From a virus: a stretch of DNA of 32,635 bases. The position numbers and the translations under genes are program-made. Of this stretch, positions 3,556-25,655 are shown piece after piece (the first letter of the stretch is position 1; each line of letters begins with the position of its first letter). The notes beneath the pieces were generated by a model, which did not search any database, was not told where the DNA came from, and was given only the letters and a program-made list of their open reading frames with translations. The DNA is taken from the UHGV virus genome UHGV-0186667. One strand, given 5' to 3'.

Positions 3556-3782
3556 TGGCTGATGCAATGGATCTCGTACAGCAGCGCGTTGAAGAAGAAC
3601 GCCAGCGTCATATCCGTGCTGCCCGTGCCAAAACGCCGGGCGTGTCCCGCGTGCTTTGCATTGAGTGTGAAGCGCCAATTCCGCCAGCACGCCGCCGTGC
3701 CATTCCGGGTGTGCAGCTTTGCATTACCTGTCAGGAAATCGCAGAGCTGAAAGGCAAACATTACAACGGAGGTGCTGTATGA
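3555..3782 (+). CDS. DksA/TraR-family C4 zinc-finger protein
   Basis: 75 aa with a four-cysteine motif CIECEAPIPPARRRAIPGVQLCITCQ, typical of TraR/DksA. Confidence 0.75.
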   Translation: MADAMDLVQQRVEEERQRHIRAARAKTPGVSRVLCIECEAPIPPARRRAIPGVQLCITCQEIAELKGKHYNGGAV

Positions 3783-4636
3783 GCACCATCCTGAAATGGG
3801 CGGGAAATAAAACTGCCATAATGTCAGAACTGAAAAAACACCTTCCTGCTGGCCCGCGACTGGTTGAACCTTTCGCGGGTTCCTGTGCTGTGATGATGGA
3901 GACGGATTACCCCAGCTATCTGGTTGCGGATATTAATCCTGATTTAATCAACCTCTATAAAAAGGTTGCCGCTGATTGTGAATCGTTTATATCGCGCGCC
4001 AGAGTTTTATTTGAGATCGCAAACAGGGAGGTGGCTTATTACAACATAAGGCAGGAGTTTAATTACTCCACTGAAATTACTGATTTCATGAAAGCGGTAT
4101 ATTTCCTGTATCTCAATCGTCACGGTTACCGTGGTTTATGTCGCTATAACAAGAGCGGGCATTTCAACATTCCCTACGGTAATTATAAAAATCCGTATTT
4201 CCCTGAAAAAGAAATTCGCGCATTTGCAGAAAAAGCCCAGCGGGCAACGTTTATCTGCGCCAGCTTTGATGAAACGCTGGCGATGTTGAAGGCGGGAGAT
4301 GTGGTGTATTGCGATCCGCCGTATGACGGCACGTTTTCCGGTTATCACACTGACGGCTTCACTGAAGATGACCAGTATCACCTGGCATCCGTTCTTGAAC
4401 ATCGGTCATCAGAAGGACATCCGGTCATTGTTTCTAACAGTGACACATCCCTGATCCGTTCGCTGTATCGCAATTTTACTCACCACTACATCAAGGCAAA
4501 ACGCAACATCGGTGTGGCAGCTGGCGAGGGTAAATCAGCAACAGAAATCATTGCTGTTTCCGGGCCGCGCTGCTGGGTGGGATTTGATTATTCGCGTAGC
4601 GTGGACAGTTCTGCCGTGTACGGAGTACGTGCATGA
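3779..4636 (+). CDS. dam: DNA adenine methyltransferase (Dam family)
   Basis: N-terminal ILKWAGNK motif, [15 protein letters not shown] block and DPPY catalytic motif (VYCDPPYDG) match E. coli Dam. Start ATG 3779 overlaps the upstream stop (ATGA). Confidence 0.85.
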
Positions 4637-7903: not shown

Positions 7904-8119
7904 ATGTCAAGCATCGCCGCATTTAGCCTGGGTAACCCAGTTGAACGTCTGGCAAGGGTTCTTAAAGAGAACCAGGACAAACTCAATCTTAGTAAAGATG
8001 GTTTTGTGTCCGTAGACTTGTCTAACAAAAGAGCAATGGATGCCATCAAGGCACAGATGGATAAGCTTGAAGGCATCAAAACGAGCACTGTAAAAGAGAA
8101 AACTAATAGAACCAGATAA
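7904..8119 (+). CDS. Hypothetical small soluble protein, first gene of a two-gene cargo operon
   Basis: 71-aa ORF with strong SD AAGGGGGAG 4 nt upstream; its stop overlaps the next start (TAATG). No recognisable family. Confidence 0.5.
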   Translation: MSSIAAFSLGNPVERLARVLKENQDKLNLSKDGFVSVDLSNKRAMDAIKAQMDKLEGIKTSTVKEKTNRTR

Positions 8120-8961
8120 TGGCAACATTACTTTTAGCAGTGATTTTGGTTAGTGGTTTTATTTATGTAAACCTATCACTTTCAACAAGATACCGATATA
8201 AGCGTTCCAACGGCTGGGACGCTTATTTTTTTGTGGCTGCCTGGGGTATCGTTTTTTTTCTCCTTGGCGGTTTTTTCACCTTTATTTTGAACGTCAGCGG
8301 AGGGTTTCGTTGGCTGGCTAATGCCTTGAATCTAACACCTGACAGTTTTAATGGCATGTTGTCTTCATCGAAAGACAAACTTCAAAGAATAAATGAAATC
8401 AAACAGATAGCATGGGTTATGATTTCAATTGTCCTCGCTGCGATTTCAGGTTTTGGAAATAAGTTACGCACATCACGTGGAGATCGTCGTTGGGATGCCT
8501 TAGCTAAAGCTGTGGGTAATAACGCTTTCGAATCATTACTCATGGAAGCGTCCGCAAGACAGTTTCCGATCATAGCAACTCTGTCGTCTCGCAAAATCTA
8601 TGTTGGTCTTGTTACTTGTCCGGCGTTAGAAAACGGGCTTTCAGAGCACCTTGAACTTCTCCCGATGTTAAGCGGATATCGGGATAAAGATGATCTAACG
8701 ATTAGTATCACGACTAACTATCACCAACATTATCTTGATAGTGGTGTGATAAGTGGAATGTCTCGGCTTAATATCGAAGATTTCCGTGTGCTCATACCAA
8801 AAGATGAGGTTGAAACAATTTCGTTTTTTGATACTGAGACATATAACAAATTTAAAGAAAATGAAGCCAGGGATAGAAAGAACTGTCGAAAGATTGATAG
8901 TAAAAGTGCATCTTCGCGCAGCAAGCGTGCAGCAGATGCTGAGTCAAATGATCGTGCATGA
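8119..8961 (+). CDS. Hypothetical membrane protein with three predicted TM helices and a soluble C-terminal domain
   Basis: 280 aa. Hydrophobic segments at about aa 3-19, 35-57 and 96-112; C-terminal ~170 aa soluble with a basic tail. Visibly AT-rich compared with phage core genes. Confidence 0.6.
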   Translation: MATLLLAVILVSGFIYVNLSLSTRYRYKRSNGWDAYFFVAAWGIVFFLLGGFFTFILNVSGGFRWLANALNLTPDSFNGMLSSSKDKLQRINEIKQIAWVMISIVLAAISGFGNKLRTSRGDRRWDALAKAVGNNAFESLLMEASARQFPIIATLSSRKIYVGLVTCPALENGLSEHLELLPMLSGYRDKDDLTISITTNYHQHYLDSGVISGMSRLNIEDFRVLIPKDEVETISFFDTETYNKFKENEARDRKNCRKIDSKSASSRSKRAADAESNDRA

Positions 8962-9198: not shown

Positions 9199-10872
9199 AT
9201 GGAAAAATATCAAGATGAGGAATATGTAGATGATTTAACTGAGCGTGTTTTTCTCATTAAGCAACAACTGGAAGCGGGAAAACTAAAAATAGCTCATCAT
9301 CTTGTAGAAGGTTTTATTGAAAGTTTTAAAAGAATAAGGCTGCGACAGGATGGTAAAGTTGACCCTTCTACTGTTGATGGCAGAATAAGGGCTATGGGAG
9401 CAGCGGTTAATCACTTTTTAGAAAGAGAAGATATAAAAAACAAATACTCTATTCAGGACTTGCAAAGTTCTTACTTTAATATTCTTTTTAGTAATTTTGG
9501 CGAGTTGTTTTATCTGATGAAAAAAACTAATGCAACGCCACATAAAGCATCAAGTTTTTTTTCTCAACAAGAAGAATATGTTAAGCAAATAGAAGATATT
9601 TTTCCTGAGTTATATAATCAGGTAATAGAGTTTTGGCAGGTAACATCCGATATTGGTGTAATACATTTGCAGGATGGTTCTCAGTTTAAAGCTAATTTTT
9701 CTGGTGACTTATTTCCTGCATTTGATGAGAATGCTGTCTCTATTGCAGGGTTGTATGTTGATACTATTTCACTTCCATGTCCTATATTAAGAGTCGGTCG
9801 TCTCTATGAAAAGTCAGATAAGGCTGAGTTTACAAGGATACTTCTGAAGCATGTCCTAACATGTATGACATATAAAGAAGTAGCGCTTGAAGATATAGAG
9901 CCAGCAATAGTATTAATTTTGCCGGATAGAAGAGATTTTGAAACTGAGAGCAAAAAAAATTTGATGAGTTTTTGTGAGCCTTATGCTCTGACTCATGCGC
10001 AATATCTCTATGATCGACGGTTCGAAAGCTACGATGAATTTCGAGATTTTAGTTATTCGATGAATGATATTGATGCTGTTCTTAAAAATATTAAGAGAGC
10101 AGATAGACTTATTTTTGATACAGCATGGGGGCTAAATCCAAAAACTCAATTAGAAAAACTACTATCTGATAAAAAAAGAATATCACGTAATGTTGTTGGT
10201 GATCATGCTGGAATGGAGGTTTTCCTTTCCTGCATTGGAAGAATGCCGCAAGCCTATTCAGCAAAATGTAATGCACAAGAACTTGGTAGTACTCCATATA
10301 TAAATGCAGACACATCTTGGCTCTATTATACTTGGCTTATTGAGTACGAATCTCTTAATTTTGATGTCAATGATATTGAACTAAAAAATTTGCATATGGT
10401 TCATGCGTTATCTGCTGGTATGCAAGATGGTTTTTCATGGTTAGGAAATGTACCGGTCAATAAAATAATTGAGTTGAGACGTAACAAATTGATGGAGGAT
10501 GTAAGATCCATCTTATCAAATGGTGTTGACTCTTTAATCAATTCTTCGGCAGAGAGCTTTTCGAGGACAACGCAAAAAGTAATTGATAATGTAGACCGGG
10601 CTTTTATTGAACATCAAAGGATTCTTGCAAAAGCCCAAAAAGAGAAATTGAGAATTTACGGACTAGATGTCCTACCATGTATCGCAAATGGTGCTATAGC
10701 AATTGCTGGAGCGCTGACTGGCAATACTACTTTAACGGCGTTAAGTGCAGGCCTTGGAGTAATAGGTATTCCGAGTATTAGTGATATCAAATCTAAATTT
10801 AAGCAGAGGCAAGAGAAGCTTGATGCCTATCAACGTTCTGTTACAGGTATACTCTTTAGCCATAAATCTTAA
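9199..10872 (+). CDS. Hypothetical 557-aa cargo protein with C-terminal hydrophobic Gly/Ala-rich segment
   Basis: Long uninterrupted ORF, strongly AT-rich, SD GGAG 5 nt upstream. No Walker A, no YxDD, no recognisable catalytic motif. C-terminal stretch IANGAIAIAGALTGNTTLTALSAGLGVIGIPSI looks membrane-inserting. Confidence 0.7.
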   Translation: MEKYQDEEYVDDLTERVFLIKQQLEAGKLKIAHHLVEGFIESFKRIRLRQDGKVDPSTVDGRIRAMGAAVNHFLEREDIKNKYSIQDLQSSYFNILFSNFGELFYLMKKTNATPHKASSFFSQQEEYVKQIEDIFPELYNQVIEFWQVTSDIGVIHLQDGSQFKANFSGDLFPAFDENAVSIAGLYVDTISLPCPILRVGRLYEKSDKAEFTRILLKHVLTCMTYKEVALEDIEPAIVLILPDRRDFETESKKNLMSFCEPYALTHAQYLYDRRFESYDEFRDFSYSMNDIDAVLKNIKRADRLIFDTAWGLNPKTQLEKLLSDKKRISRNVVGDHAGMEVFLSCIGRMPQAYSAKCNAQELGSTPYINADTSWLYYTWLIEYESLNFDVNDIELKNLHMVHALSAGMQDGFSWLGNVPVNKIIELRRNKLMEDVRSILSNGVDSLINSSAESFSRTTQKVIDNVDRAFIEHQRILAKAQKEKLRIYGLDVLPCIANGAIAIAGALTGNTTLTALSAGLGVIGIPSISDIKSKFKQRQEKLDAYQRSVTGILFSHKS

Positions 10873-21546: not shown

Positions 21547-22144
21547 TCTGCTGCCACCGGGTTCAACACCACTGGAGCGCCGACTGGCGCAAACCTGCAG
21601 CGGGATTTCTGATCTGCAGGTGCCGCTTCGTGATTTGTGGAATCCGGCAACCTGTCCGGTCAGTTTCCTGCCTTATCTCGCCTGGGCGTTCTCTGTGGAT
21701 CGCTGGGACGAGGGCTGGACAGAAAGCGTCAAGCGCCAGGTGGTGAAGGATGCTTTTTATATTCATCAGCATAAAGGGACCACCAGTGCCGTGCGGCGGG
21801 TGGTGGAGCCGTTCGGATTCCTGATCCGCATTATTGAGTGGTGGCAGACCGGAGAGGCACCGGGCACGTTTCGCCTGGATATCGGCGTGCAGGACCAGGG
21901 CATCACTGAAGATACCTATCTGGAACTTGAGCGACTGATAAGCGATGCCAAACCATGTAGCCGCCACATGATCGGCATGTCCATCAATCTGCAGACCAGC
22001 GGCCCGCATTGGGTGGGAGCCGCCAGCTATCTTGGCGAAGAAATCACGATCTATCCGTATATCAACGAAACAATTATTTCCGGCGGCACCGCGCATGAAG
22101 GCGGGGCGGTCCATGTTATTGACACAATGAGAGTGAATCCATGA
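21539..22144 (+). CDS. I: Baseplate protein I
   Basis: 201 aa between J and the tail fibre gene. Confidence 0.8.
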   Translation: MNSLLPPGSTPLERRLAQTCSGISDLQVPLRDLWNPATCPVSFLPYLAWAFSVDRWDEGWTESVKRQVVKDAFYIHQHKGTTSAVRRVVEPFGFLIRIIEWWQTGEAPGTFRLDIGVQDQGITEDTYLELERLISDAKPCSRHMIGMSINLQTSGPHWVGAASYLGEEITIYPYINETIISGGTAHEGGAVHVIDTMRVNP

Positions 22145-23544
22145 GCACAAAATTTTATACCCTGCTGACGGATATTGGCGCGGAGAAACTTGCCAGCGCC
22201 GCCGCGCTCGGTGTGCCGCTAAAAATTACCCATATGGCGGTGGGCGATGGTGGCGGAACATTGCCGACGCCGGACGCAAAGCAGAGTGCACTGGTAAATG
22301 AGAAACGTCGGGCTGCGCTGAATATGCTCTATATCGACCCACAGAACAGCAGCCAGATTATTGCTGAACAGGTGATCCCTGAAAACGAGGGCGGTTGGTG
22401 GATACGTGAAGTGGGCCTGTTTGATGAATCCGGGGCATTGATTGCCGTGGGAAACTGCCCGGAAAGCTATAAGCCGCAACTGGCTGAAGGTAGCGGGCGC
22501 ACTCAGACCGTGCGCATGGTGCTGATTACCAGCAGCACGGACAATATCACCCTGAAAATCGACCCTGCTGTAGTGCTGGCAACCCGCAAGTATGTGGATG
22601 ACAAGGCACTGGAGCTGAAGGTGTACGCGGATGATCAGATGGCAAAACATCTTGCCGCACCGGACCCGCATTCACAGTATGCACCCAAAGAAAGTCCGAC
22701 GTTTACCGGGACACCCAAAGCGCCAACGCCAGCAGCAGGGAATAACACCACGCAGATTGCGACCACCGCGTTTGTTCAGGCGGCTCTGACGGCTCTTATT
22801 AATGGTGCGCCAGCCACGCTGGACACGCTGAAAGAAATAGCCGCAGCCATTAACAATGATCCGAAATTCAGTACCACCATTAACAATGCACTGGCACTGA
22901 AAGCGCCGCTGTCGAGTCCGGCACTCACCGGAACGCCAACCGCACCTACTGCGGCACAGTCGGTCAACAATACACAGATTGCCACCACGGCATTTGTGAA
23001 ATCGGCGATTGCGGCAATGGTGGGTTCTGCACCTGCGGCACTGGATACACTCAACGAACTGGCGGCGGCACTGGGGAATGACCCGAACTTTGCCACGACA
23101 ATGCTTAATGCACTGGCAGGTAAACAACCGCTGGACAATACGCTGACTAATTTGAGTGGAAAGGATGTAGCTGGTCTTCTCACATACCTTGGTTTGGGAG
23201 AAGCAGCGAAAATGCCTGCTGCGACAGCATTAGCCAGCAGTGCAGGTAACATCACTATTCCAGTATTAATTGGTGGAGTACAACGAACAGCATTGCTTCA
23301 GTGGAAGACGCTATCAGTGCCGCAATCTACCGACGGTAATATGGTCGTTGTTGATGGCTCATGGCCGGTTGCCTTTCCTAATGCTTGCCTTTCCATCAAT
23401 CCTTCGCTGGTCAATTCTGTGATCTACGCGACTAATGGAGCCCCTTTTGTTAGCGCAGCGATTGTTGACCGGGTCAAATTCAAAGCCGCTTGCGCATACA
23501 CGAAATCTAATTCAACAGTGGCAGTATGGGGAGTGGGATATTAA
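22141..23544 (+). CDS. H: Tail fibre protein H; the C-terminal ~118 aa lie inside the invertible segment
   Basis: N-terminus resembles P2 H (MAVGDGGG) and later blocks (NDPNFATTMLNALAGKQP) match P2 H repeats. The crossover site sits at codons YLGLGE. Confidence 0.8.
   Translation: MSTKFYTLLTDIGAEKLASAAALGVPLKITHMAVGDGGGTLPTPDAKQSALVNEKRRAALNMLYIDPQNSSQIIAEQVIPENEGGWWIREVGLFDESGALIAVGNCPESYKPQLAEGSGRTQTVRMVLITSSTDNITLKIDPAVVLATRKYVDDKALELKVYADDQMAKHLAAPDPHSQYAPKESPTFTGTPKAPTPAAGNNTTQIATTAFVQAALTALINGAPATLDTLKEIAAAINNDPKFSTTINNALALKAPLSSPALTGTPTAPTAAQSVNNTQIATTAFVKSAIAAMVGSAPAALDTLNELAAALGNDPNFATTMLNALAGKQPLDNTLTNLSGKDVAGLLTYLGLGEAAKMPAATALASSAGNITIPVLIGGVQRTALLQWKTLSVPQSTDGNMVVVDGSWPVAFPNACLSINPSLVNSVIYATNGAPFVSAAIVDRVKFKAACAYTKSNSTVAVWGVGY
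23177..23202. repeat. Inversion crossover site (gix/hix-like), left
   Basis: TTCTCACATACCTTGGTTTGGGAGAA: two 12-bp half-sites around a central dinucleotide. Its right 14 nt are an exact inverted copy of the start of the site at 25008. Confidence 0.7.
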
Positions 23545-23987
23545 TGGTCGACTATGTATTCAGCCCGACGGAAAATGCTTTTTATCTTGTGGCACTGAAA
23601 TATGATTATTTAACTGCTGGCACATGGCCGTCAGACGGCATCAATATAAATGCTGAAGATGCACTGGTTTTCATGGGAAACGCTCCTGAGGGTAAAATGC
23701 GTGGCATTGGTGATGATGGGTTGCCTTGCTGGGTAGATCTTCCGTCACCTACGCATAAAGAACAACTTGCTGCGGCTGACTCAGAGAAAAAGTCGAGAAT
23801 TGACCATGCCAACGAATACATGAACGGTAAGCAATGGCCTGGTAAAGCAGCTATCGGTCGTCTGAAAGGTGAGGAACTGGCACAATATAATTTGTGGCTG
23901 GATTATCTGGACGCACTGGAGCTGATCGATACTTCCGGTGCGCCAGATATTGAATGGCCTACGCCTCCGGCAGTTCAGGCCAGATGA
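23526..23987 (+). CDS. G: Tail fibre assembly protein (chaperone for the current orientation)
   Basis: 153 aa with C-terminal motif LDYLDAL...WPTPP typical of tail-fibre assembly proteins. Confidence 0.75.
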   Translation: MGSGILMVDYVFSPTENAFYLVALKYDYLTAGTWPSDGININAEDALVFMGNAPEGKMRGIGDDGLPCWVDLPSPTHKEQLAAADSEKKSRIDHANEYMNGKQWPGKAAIGRLKGEELAQYNLWLDYLDALELIDTSGAPDIEWPTPPAVQAR

Positions 23988-24561
23988 CATCCGGCGCTGT
24001 GCTGGTATCTGTTGCCGTCACCGCGTCAATGTAATCCAGCACAGCGTTAAGGCGGATTGTTTCTGCCTGCGTCAGCTTCCGTCCGGCCTGTAATTTCAGT
24101 TGAATCAGACTGATGGAGGCCATTGCAGTATCAATCAGCAACGGGCGCTGTGCTTCTGCTGCATCTACTGCTGCGCCGTGCTGTGCCTCGGTATCTGTCA
24201 CCCATTTCTCACCATTCCATTCATCGTATGGCGTTAACGGGGCGATAGTGGTTGTATTTTCAGGATAATCACCCGGAGCTGTGATTTCTTTCGATTCTCC
24301 TGTTTCGGTGCTATAGACGATTTCACCGCGATGATCTGGCACATATTCCCATGAATTTAAATTCACAGAACGACAGATTGCATAACCAACCTTATGTATG
24401 CCAGGTGCATCAAGACAGGAACATGCCGGAATACCGACACCAACAGCAAGATATTCAGTTGACGTGGAAATATATTCCCGTGTTTCACCATCGTAGTTAT
24501 AAACGGTAACATCCCCTGCCTTTGTTGCAATAAGCTCACTATTTAATATTGCTTTATGCAT
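23959..24561 (-). CDS. Alternative tail fibre assembly protein (for the inverted orientation)
   Basis: 200 aa on the minus strand with C-terminal motif LDYIDAV...WPELP; convergent with G and overlapping it by 29 nt. Confidence 0.7.
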   Translation of the reverse strand: MHKAILNSELIATKAGDVTVYNYDGETREYISTSTEYLAVGVGIPACSCLDAPGIHKVGYAICRSVNLNSWEYVPDHRGEIVYSTETGESKEITAPGDYPENTTTIAPLTPYDEWNGEKWVTDTEAQHGAAVDAAEAQRPLLIDTAMASISLIQLKLQAGRKLTQAETIRLNAVLDYIDAVTATDTSTAPDVIWPELPEA

Positions 24562-25021
24562 CAGGCTGCCCTCACGATATAGTTAAATGCAATATTACGC
24601 GGACGGTTTTCGTTTGCAGTTGGAACAACTCTGGAAGCATCAAATGTTACTCGCTTTGCATAACCACCTTTAATTGAATCAGATGAAGCATCTCCGATGA
24701 CGCTGGTTGTAAAAGCACCAGAATCAGAAGGATAGGTATTAAACCTGACATCCACTAATGCACCAATTATATTTCGAATGGCATCGCCCTGTGATGAAAG
24801 CAAGCTACGGTTAGTATCAATTCCTCTTCCGTCATCCCAGCCGCGAATAAACTCACCACGTAAATCAGGCAATTTATTTGTCGGGTAAACTTTTGCCAGT
24901 TCCGGGTATTCTTCAGCAGAAAAAGCCGCACCATTGCATTTCAGCCAGCCTGTTGGCGGAGTGGCTGAAGGCCACGGAACAGGGACACCAACAGGTAATG
25001 CAGAGCCTTCTCCCAAACCAA
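24561..25021 (-). CDS. Alternative tail fibre C-terminal exon, fused to H only after inversion
   Basis: Minus-strand frame reads GLGEGSALPVG... through the crossover site, the same GLGE junction as in H. An in-frame ATG exists at 25061, outside the segment. Confidence 0.6.
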
Positions 25022-25033
25022 CGTTTATGAAAA
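25008..25033. repeat. Inversion crossover site (gix/hix-like), right
   Basis: TTCTCCCAAACCAACGTTTATGAAAA; its first 14 nt are the exact reverse complement of the right end of the site at 23177. Confidence 0.7.
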
Positions 25034-25082
25034 TGCAGAGATAACGGCTAACTGGCATCATCTCCGGTTTTTATTCAGGGGG

Positions 25083-25655
25083 ATGATCATGCTTATTGGC
25101 TATGTACGCGTGTCAACAAATGACCAGAACACCGATTTGCAACGCAATGCACTGAACTGTGCGGGATGTGAGCGGATTTTTGAGGATAAAATCAGTGGCA
25201 CCAAGTCCGACAGACCGGGGCTGAAAAAGCTGCTCAGGACACTATCGGCAGGAGACACGCTGGTTGTCTGGAAGCTGGACAGACTGGGGCGCAGTATGCG
25301 GCATCTTGTTACGCTGATAGAAGAGCTGCGCCAGCGTGGCGTGAATTTCCGAAGCCTGACTGACAGTATTGATACCAGCACCCCAATGGGCCGTTTCTTT
25401 TTTCATGTCATGGGTGCCCTGGCTGAAATGGAACGCGAACTGATAGTTGAACGTACCAGGGCGGGGCTGGCTGCAGCTCGTGCTAAAGGCAGAGTAGGTG
25501 GACGCCGTCCTAAGTTGACCAGCGAACAGTGGGCACAGATTGGGCGTTTACTCGAGGCCGGAGAATCAAGACAGCGTATTGCACTGATTTTTGATGTAGG
25601 CGTTTCTACCATTTATCGAAAATTTCCGGCAAATAAGAACAATAAATCTCCCTGA
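25083..25655 (+). CDS. Serine DNA invertase (Gin/Hin/Cin/Pin family)
   Basis: Near-identical to Mu Gin over most of its length (LIGYVRVSTNDQNTDLQRNAL, VVWKLDRLGRSM, MGRFFFHVMGALAEMERELI). True start may be ATG 25089. Confidence 0.9.
   Translation: MIMLIGYVRVSTNDQNTDLQRNALNCAGCERIFEDKISGTKSDRPGLKKLLRTLSAGDTLVVWKLDRLGRSMRHLVTLIEELRQRGVNFRSLTDSIDTSTPMGRFFFHVMGALAEMERELIVERTRAGLAAARAKGRVGGRRPKLTSEQWAQIGRLLEAGESRQRIALIFDVGVSTIYRKFPANKNNKSP

Follow-up and report, generated by a model that had tools for sequence, protein, structure and literature searches.

The tail-fibre gene H of the virus genome UHGV-0186667 and the DNA invertase gene that follows it very probably form a working inversion switch of the Pin/Gin type that exchanges the receptor-binding tip of the fibre. 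A P2-like prophage with a 186-type repressor carries it in the slot that fun(Z) occupies in P2. The whole stretch of 32,635 nucleotides (nt) was examined and is called the window below. An earlier note on this DNA had described inverted crossover sites that bracket two alternative fibre exons, each with an assembly gene, and both the sites and this arrangement were recovered here (Table 1). Exon A encodes the present C-terminal end of H and is followed by chaperone A, while exon B and chaperone B lie on the opposite strand; the open reading frames (ORFs) were accompanied by Pfam matches to Caudo_TAP for both chaperones and to Collar for exon B. The switch is real and almost certainly active.

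The repeat finder returned inverted arms at 23177-23203 and 25007-25033 (27 nt, 85% complementary, 1803 nt apart), which contain the two crossover sites. Each site consists of two imperfect half-sites (12 bp each by the criterion used for Hin, Gin, Cin, and Pin) flanking a 2-bp core. Compared in inverted orientation, the left and right sites were alike at 22 of 26 positions and had the central TT dinucleotide in common. When the 32.6 kb were scanned with the invertase-site consensus TTCTCNNAAACCNNGGTTTNNGAGAA at up to three mismatches, precisely these two sites were found, and the same scan on 100 shuffled sequences gave no site in any of them. We regard the sites as real and not as chance matches because the window holds only two consensus sites and the 100 shuffles hold none. 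The left site is identical to the left site of the Escherichia coli isolates SW071619 and SW071611, which differ by inversion at this locus, and the right site is identical to that of element e14 of E. coli K-12 and to that of the flipped pair 1604D011 and 1504D004.

A different origin of the inverted repeat, as a chance match or as the remnant of a fibre-gene duplication with no recombination function, would be in keeping with the mosaic, repeat-rich nature of tail-fibre genes, and several short chance repeats do occur in this region. This explanation is already refuted: not even one consensus site arose in the 100 shuffles, the two sites coincide with known pix, gix, and cix sequences, and the inversion breakpoints of sister isolates (described below) fall exactly at the two site positions of the window. 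Loosening the consensus scan to six mismatches revealed no additional site in the window, and no further AAACCNNGGTTT core was found there at one mismatch or fewer. A shufflon or other multiple-inversion system, with three or more sites, was ruled out because only two sites were present even at six mismatches.

The consequence of inversion for H was examined in silico. Inversion of 23189-25021 preserved the reading frame and changed H from 467 to 502 amino acids (aa), the two products sharing a prefix of 354 aa. Both exons and both chaperone genes are intact ORFs, and the stop codon of each exon overlaps the start of its own chaperone gene (TAATG and TGATG). The start of chaperone A is likely at 23544, which gives the TAATG overlap and is the start chosen by the gene callers for the 147-aa product. 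Exon A showed a weak Pfam match to Gp53-like_C over H residues 405-461; phage 500465-1 has it as its silent exon at 99.1% identity, and a stretch of Cronobacter phage JK004 is 72.6% identical to it. No specific NCBIfam family was found for the fibre parts, and the invertase had NCBIfam matches below threshold only.

Both orientations of the segment occur among near-identical relatives. In phage 500465-1 (Peduoviridae, Wadgaonvirus), the stretch corresponding to window 23189-25033 is 99.7% identical and, with respect to the flanks, lies on the opposite strand. The H gene of this phage, 1509 nt long, encodes 502 aa, exactly as calculated for the inverted form, and a gene annotated as DNA invertase comes next. 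In a set of 5,426 complete E. coli genomes, the arrangement of the window was matched by 13 and the flipped construct made in silico by 13 as well, counted at a coverage of at least 80% of a 3.1-kb query. Taken together with the preserved frame, these relatives bore out the proposal that inversion swaps the tip of H.

Opposite orientations at the same coordinates were also found between sister isolates: SW071619 and SW07163 compared to SW071611, 1604D011 compared to 1504D004, GCM39-10-2-9-3-1 compared to GCM74-1-1, and 2020N21-246-1 compared to 2020N21-246. Between SW071619 and SW071611, the left flank is identical over 3603 nt and the right flank over 3693 nt, and the 1845-nt middle is an exact reverse complement, with the breakpoints of the inversion in the two crossover sites. 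The invertase of these two isolates is 96% identical to that of the window. Strain 503440 carries two copies of the locus approximately 36 kb apart, one in each orientation. The 1604D011 and 1504D004 loci likewise have identical 3.6-kb flanks and opposite segment orientations, and they differ by 16 substitutions. All 16 lie in the half with exon A and chaperone A (locus positions approximately 3675-4560), and could be due to gene conversion from another prophage copy or to a polishing artefact.

A further pattern was seen in related loci from species-representative genomes. In 19 of the 79 loci, the contig breaks off at the right site, 64-137 nt before the invertase (L008, L014, L017, L018, L022, L026, L031, L033, L036, L039, L040, L048, L061-L063, L070, L071, L073, and L086). 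Since a 26-bp repeat alone should not break an assembly, these contig ends point to mixed orientations in the cultures, and they probably reflect such cultures in short-read assemblies.

The invertase is intact. It matched the Mu Gin structures 3UJ3 and 4M6F over its full length (E=1e-92) with the nucleophilic serine aligned, and residues Y5, R7, S9, D64, R65, and R68 are all present. Its identity to the invertases of isolates that flipped is 96-98%, and its identity to characterized enzymes is 86.7% for PinE of e14, 79% for Cin of P1, and 76% for Gin of Mu. The earlier note had called the enzyme Gin-like; a serine invertase does follow the segment, but the label is loose, and Pin-type is more exact because the enzyme is nearest to PinE, the right site is that of e14, and the TT/AA core is as in e14. 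The start of the gene is likely at 25089 and not at 25083, as the former aligns with the starts of Gin, Cin, and Pin and is preceded by a GGGGGA ribosome-binding site.

Residue 114 of the window invertase is methionine as in wild-type Gin, whereas the Fis-independent Gin mutant in structure 3UJ3 has valine (M114V); the wild-type residue only suggests that the window invertase depends on Fis. The numbering of the window invertase is presumably that of Hin minus one, from the Hin N-terminus. In Hin, the residues that contact Fis or the enhancer and are unique to invertases are Q151, R154, and L155, together with basic residues at 47, 48, and 51 (PMC3798978). Their counterparts in the window invertase are Q150, R153, and L154, and K46, K47, and R50.

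The predicted Fis enhancer lies within the invertase gene. In the P1 record, the enhancer for inversion of the C segment is annotated at nt 19-90 of cin, where the window gene aligns at high identity. In order to distinguish enhancer constraint from constraint on the protein, codon choice at conserved residues was measured in an alignment of 72 distinct invertase genes from Enterobacterales genomes. Codons 7-30 averaged 0.60 of maximum entropy compared to 0.86 for the remaining gene (Mann-Whitney p=0.0008). Synonymous variation was low at codons 9-12 (TCA ACA AAT GAC; 25113-25124) and at codons 25-27 (GCA GGA TGT; 25161-25169), which form two constrained patches approximately 47-49 nt apart. 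In the Gin, Cin, and Hin systems, the enhancer in the 5' part of the gene has two Fis sites approximately 47-48 bp apart. The centres of the two in hin are separated by 47 bp (PMC3798978), a distance that the patch spacing fits.

In the mechanism that we propose, by analogy with Hin, Gin, Cin, and Pin, dimers of the serine invertase would bind the two 26-bp sites and, together with host Fis on the enhancer, would form an invertasome. Both sites would be cut at the central TT, with the 2-nt stagger of those systems, rotated by 180 degrees, and religated, so that approximately 1.83 kb would be inverted. The exon facing the constant part of H would then be fused to it in frame and co-translated with its own downstream chaperone. 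This exon would be the one expressed because the promoter and start codon of H lie only on the constant part, outside the segment, and the silent exon would have no independent expression. The present state would yield the 467-aa H with exon A and a gp53-like tip; the flipped state would yield the 502-aa H with exon B, a collar tip, and a TfaE-like chaperone. A population of lysogens would thus be expected to release two kinds of virions with different receptor specificity, and the host range would probably be swapped.

Several points weigh against an active switch in this particular copy. The left site departs from the consensus by a T in place of A (ATACC for AAACC), and codon 25 of the invertase, in the second enhancer patch, is GCG, whereas 61 of 65 relatives have GCA. 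The exact H protein of the window was found in one orientation only in public assemblies, and the evidence for flipping comes from near-identical relatives and not from the copy in the window. The locus might accordingly be a frozen relic that no longer flips, through a weakened site, a weakened enhancer, or a silent invertase, with the fibre fixed on exon A; the single orientation of contigs with the exact H protein and the one-base departures from consensus in the left half-site and the second enhancer patch would both agree with this. We consider such a relic very unlikely. Both the ATACC deviation and the GCG codon are present in isolates that differ by inversion, the invertase is not truncated and keeps every catalytic and Fis-contact residue, the reading frames of the two exons and the two chaperones are intact, and the right site is identical to the active e14 site.

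Table 1. Features of the invertible fibre locus (window coordinates)
Feature	Position	Strand	Description
Tail-fibre gene H	22141-23544	+	467 aa; Phage_tail_fib N-terminal domain (Pfam, E=1.8e-64)
H constant N-terminal part	22141-23176	+	Products of both orientations alike through residue 354
Left crossover site (pixL/gixL-like)	23177-23202		TTCTCACATACC-TT-GGTTTGGGAGAA; core TT at 23189-23190; inside H, encodes LLTYLGLGE
Variable exon A	23203-23544	+	C-terminal 113 aa of H, gp53-like tip; expressed end in the present orientation
Chaperone A	23544-23987	+	147 aa; Caudo_TAP (Pfam, E=6.9e-29); alternative ATG upstream at 23526
Chaperone B	23959-24561	-	200 aa, cognate to exon B; Caudo_TAP (Pfam, E=4.1e-30)
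Variable exon B	24561-25007	-	Alternative C-terminal 148 aa of H, silent now; tail-collar domain (Pfam Collar, E=3.9e-15)
Right crossover site (pixR-like)	25008-25033		TTCTCCCAAACC-AA-CGTTTATGAAAA; core AA at 25020-25021 (TT on the opposite strand)
Putative invertase promoter	25033-25061	+	-35-like ATGCAG at 25033-25038, abutting the site; extended -10-like TGgCATCAT at 25053-25061
DNA invertase	25089-25655	+	188 aa; small serine recombinase (Pin/Cin/Gin/Hin group); Pfam Resolvase (E=2.3e-53) and HTH_7
Predicted Fis (recombinational) enhancer	25107-25178		In the 5' part of the invertase coding sequence; homologous to nt 19-90 of P1 cin

The closest known system is the P segment of e14 with PinE. 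The order of genes is the same, with the constant part of the fibre followed by an exon and its tfa gene, a second tfa gene and exon in reverse, and the invertase (stfP-tfaP / tfaE-stfE-pinE). The right sites are identical, the left sites differ at 4 of 26 positions, and the core is TT/AA in both. Chaperone B shares 91% identity with TfaE, and exon B 59% with stfE; TfaP and chaperone A are 50% identical, and the C-terminus of StfP is 43% identical to exon A. Both loci also have a 29-nt convergent overlap of the tfa genes and an ATG outside the segment. In the window, the overlap of the chaperone genes spans 23959-23987, where the C-termini ...EWPTPPAVQAR and ...IWPELPEA are encoded on opposite strands. 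The e14 element is a defective lambdoid element with a truncated fibre (StfP, 209 aa), whereas the window holds an apparently complete P2-like prophage with a full-length H.

The G segment of Mu has the same plan (Sc-[Sv U / U' Sv']-gin), in which the invertase gene lies immediately beyond the right site and points away from that site. From the site to the invertase start there are 54 nt in Mu and 55 nt in the window, and both have the TGGCAT motif and an enhancer in the 5' end of the gene. Mu differs in having a GA/TC core, different outer arms of the sites, and a G segment of approximately 3 kb. The C segment of P1 resembles the window in its invertase, in the alignable cin enhancer, and in the constant part of S, but cin flanks the segment at the opposite end and is directed into it, and the segment is approximately 4.2 kb long. 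Residues 253-412 of P1 S are 81% identical to H residues 181-340 (window 22681-23160), a likeness that is a further sign of exchange of fibre modules among unrelated phages. A BLASTP comparison of the window exons and chaperones with Mu S, U, S', and U' and with the variable parts of P1 gave no match.

Min of p15B acts on several sites in the manner of a shufflon, whereas the window has two. The Hin system of Salmonella has the same enzyme family, 26-bp sites, Fis enhancer within the invertase gene, and Fis-contact residues. Hin, however, flips a promoter for flagellin genes and sits inside its own segment; in the window, the swapped part is a coding exon, and the invertase gene is outside the segment.

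The invertible fibre loci of P2-like phages (enteropathogenic E. coli (EPEC) E2348/69; phages 500465-1, pro483, and Cartapus; Fels-2 Fin) belong to the same family and occupy the same slot, and we found no essential difference between them and the window. The pair of a gp53-like and a collar exon is one of many combinations at such loci. Goldberg et al. (2014) demonstrated two flipping loci in EPEC P2-like prophages in culture by sequencing and polymerase chain reaction (PMC4272514), one being a simple two-repeat version. A three-repeat locus of an EPEC P2-like prophage belongs with the multiple-inversion systems. DNA invertases with inversion of adjacent genes are frequent in the Z/fun hotspot of P2-like phages (bioRxiv 10.1101/2024.10.15.618418), and Fin of Fels-2 is a further example (cited in PMC12529663). 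The switch type is thus already known from Mu, P1, e14, and many P2-like prophages, and near-identical copies are in public records; those of 500465-1, pro483, and Cartapus already annotate a DNA invertase. The novelty implied by the earlier note did not survive these publications and records. Its statement that classical P2 has no such switch was correct, as P2 carries fun(Z), with no invertase, at the equivalent position.

The exons themselves appear in varied company. In Klebsiella phage Kp4849-2 (L088, OK490403.1 23289-27134), whose backbone is 96% identical, homology to the window ends at 23203 and resumes at 25007; between the sites, this phage combines a collar exon, in the flipped state, with another second exon than that of the window. 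Since homology breaks exactly at the sites, the crossover sites double as boundaries for the horizontal exchange of cassettes. Exon A is rare among phage records, being held only by 500465-1 and a 94-kb Cronobacter phage. The DNA of exon B and chaperone B is approximately 90% identical to the end of the side-tail-fibre gene of the lambdoid phage HK106.

On the minus strand, an in-frame ATG lies at 25061, as had been noted earlier, with a second at 25058; both are outside the segment. Because the reading frame continues through the crossover site, this ATG shares a frame with the silent exon in either orientation. Other elements have it too: the stfE pseudogene of K-12 (b1157) starts at a homologous ATG (MPFACYFFIFINVGLGE...), and Mup52 of Mu, a coding sequence called by GeneMark, starts 29 nt outside the G segment. 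Judging from sequence comparison, the outside ATG most likely arises incidentally from a conserved promoter-like motif of the invertase. The doublet ATGATG (25061/25058) is the reverse complement of CATCAT, and TGGCATnnT keeps a constant spacing to the invertase start in loci that have diverged, among them Mu and e14.

The motif comparison concerned the class of loci with approximately 54 nt between site and invertase start, in which the surrounding spacer has diverged. In these loci, the sequence adjoining the right site begins with ATG-, and both TGGCATnnT and the site-abutting ATG- were present in L006, L009-L030, L064, L074, L083, and L089. On the plus strand, the conserved positions fit an extended -10 element (TGn followed by CATnaT, with A-11 and T-7 kept) and a weak -35 element 17 nt upstream that touches the site. 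The gin promoter adjoins the right repeat, and the putative assignment of the invertase promoter follows from this position together with the sequence conservation. A literature search for the gin promoter found nothing. A -35 element touching the recombination site would allow autoregulation of the invertase.

Other readings of this interval were considered. At its thresholds, a simple promoter scan detected no sigma-70-like site that could serve the invertase or the minus-strand ORF, and the total of its matches was no higher than in shuffled sequences. A sigma-54 promoter was ruled out for the TGGCAT motif, as the GG-to-GC spacing is unlike the -24/-12 arrangement. A terminator-like hairpin at 25050-25069 has a stem that is not kept in relatives, while TGGCAT and the T-run are.

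The outside ATG could alternatively serve translation of the silent exon by itself, giving a small free receptor-binding protein, from an ORF of 165-166 aa, as claimed for StfE and StfE2 of e14. In the flipped state, the product would be a gp53-like fragment analogous to StfE2 that masks host receptors and blocks superinfecting phages. Kirigo et al. (2025) reported that StfE2, encoded by the e14 ORF that runs from that start into a gp53-like exon after inversion, blocks T2 adsorption when produced (PMC12529663). The constant frame with the silent exon and the homologous ATGs in e14 and Mu would suit this idea, and the flipped window would encode an analogous ORF in which the outside ATG is joined to exon A. 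We nevertheless consider it unlikely. The conserved element is TGGCATnnT, which is kept in L011, L020, and L074 although the minus-strand frame from the ATG stops there after 5 codons. The frame is open in approximately three-quarters of loci, near the chance expectation of approximately 0.7 for 7 codons, and no selection on the ATG-led ORF beyond chance was detected across the compared loci. The sequence GGAG abuts the ATG at a spacing of 0-3 nt, which is poor for initiation, and the simple scan gave no minus-strand sigma-70-like promoter upstream of it. Exon B matches just the C-terminal ends of full-length fibre families (for example, positions 469-638 of 673 in phrog_523), the window exon A is only 43% identical to the StfP tip of e14, and stfE is annotated as a pseudogene in K-12. 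If this were true, the switch would act beyond the host range of the virion, as a reversible toggle of superinfection exclusion in an intact P2-like prophage.

The preferred reading, an inversion switch for the tip of H, has consequences for annotation and assembly. Exon B and its chaperone should be annotated as an alternative end of H, and not as pseudogenes or as separate "tail protein" genes. Assemblies of such lysogens are expected to show either orientation or to break at the sites. The window invertase can probably also act in trans where other pix, gix, or hix sites are present in the cell.

The window represents a near-complete P2-like prophage. It contains an integrase, a 186-type CI repressor (not the C repressor of P2), the replication gene gpA, portal and terminase genes, and genes for the capsid, lysis, baseplate, fibre, sheath, and tube, continuing to the tape measure, U, and D. 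The P2 gene order is present, and Tail_P2_I, the sheath, the GPA replication protein, and the integrase were recognised by Pfam. The backbone is 95-96% identical to annotated members of Peduoviridae; window positions 191-23203 are 95.9% identical to Klebsiella peduoviruses, and CP019275 covers 90% of the first 25 kb at 95.5% identity. The invertase locus is situated between the fibre genes H/G and the sheath gene FI.

Other genes of the prophage were noted in passing. Two ORFs, of 280 aa (8119-8961) and 557 aa (9199-10872), separate replication gene A from the portal gene, a position that in P2 is occupied by old/tin-type cargo. Neither had a match in the Pfam search; the first matched phrog_3630 (function unknown), and the second had only a weak PADLOC match to DitB (E=7e-10). 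Both are candidates for defence or moron cargo. An orphan type II DNA methyltransferase gene (3719-4636; PADLOC oMTase, E=5e-111) lies 5' of the gpA replication gene and overlaps it. E. coli 1604D011 and 1504D004 (L002 and L003, positions 1-41) have a gene for a TIR-domain protein directly upstream of baseplate gene V, an insertion that the window does not have. A 96-kb metagenomic scaffold (L091, ENA ERZ28568009 scaffold_58, sample SAMEA2580302), which probably represents the source of the window or a very close relative, also encodes the exact 467-aa H, with the same gene order and orientation.

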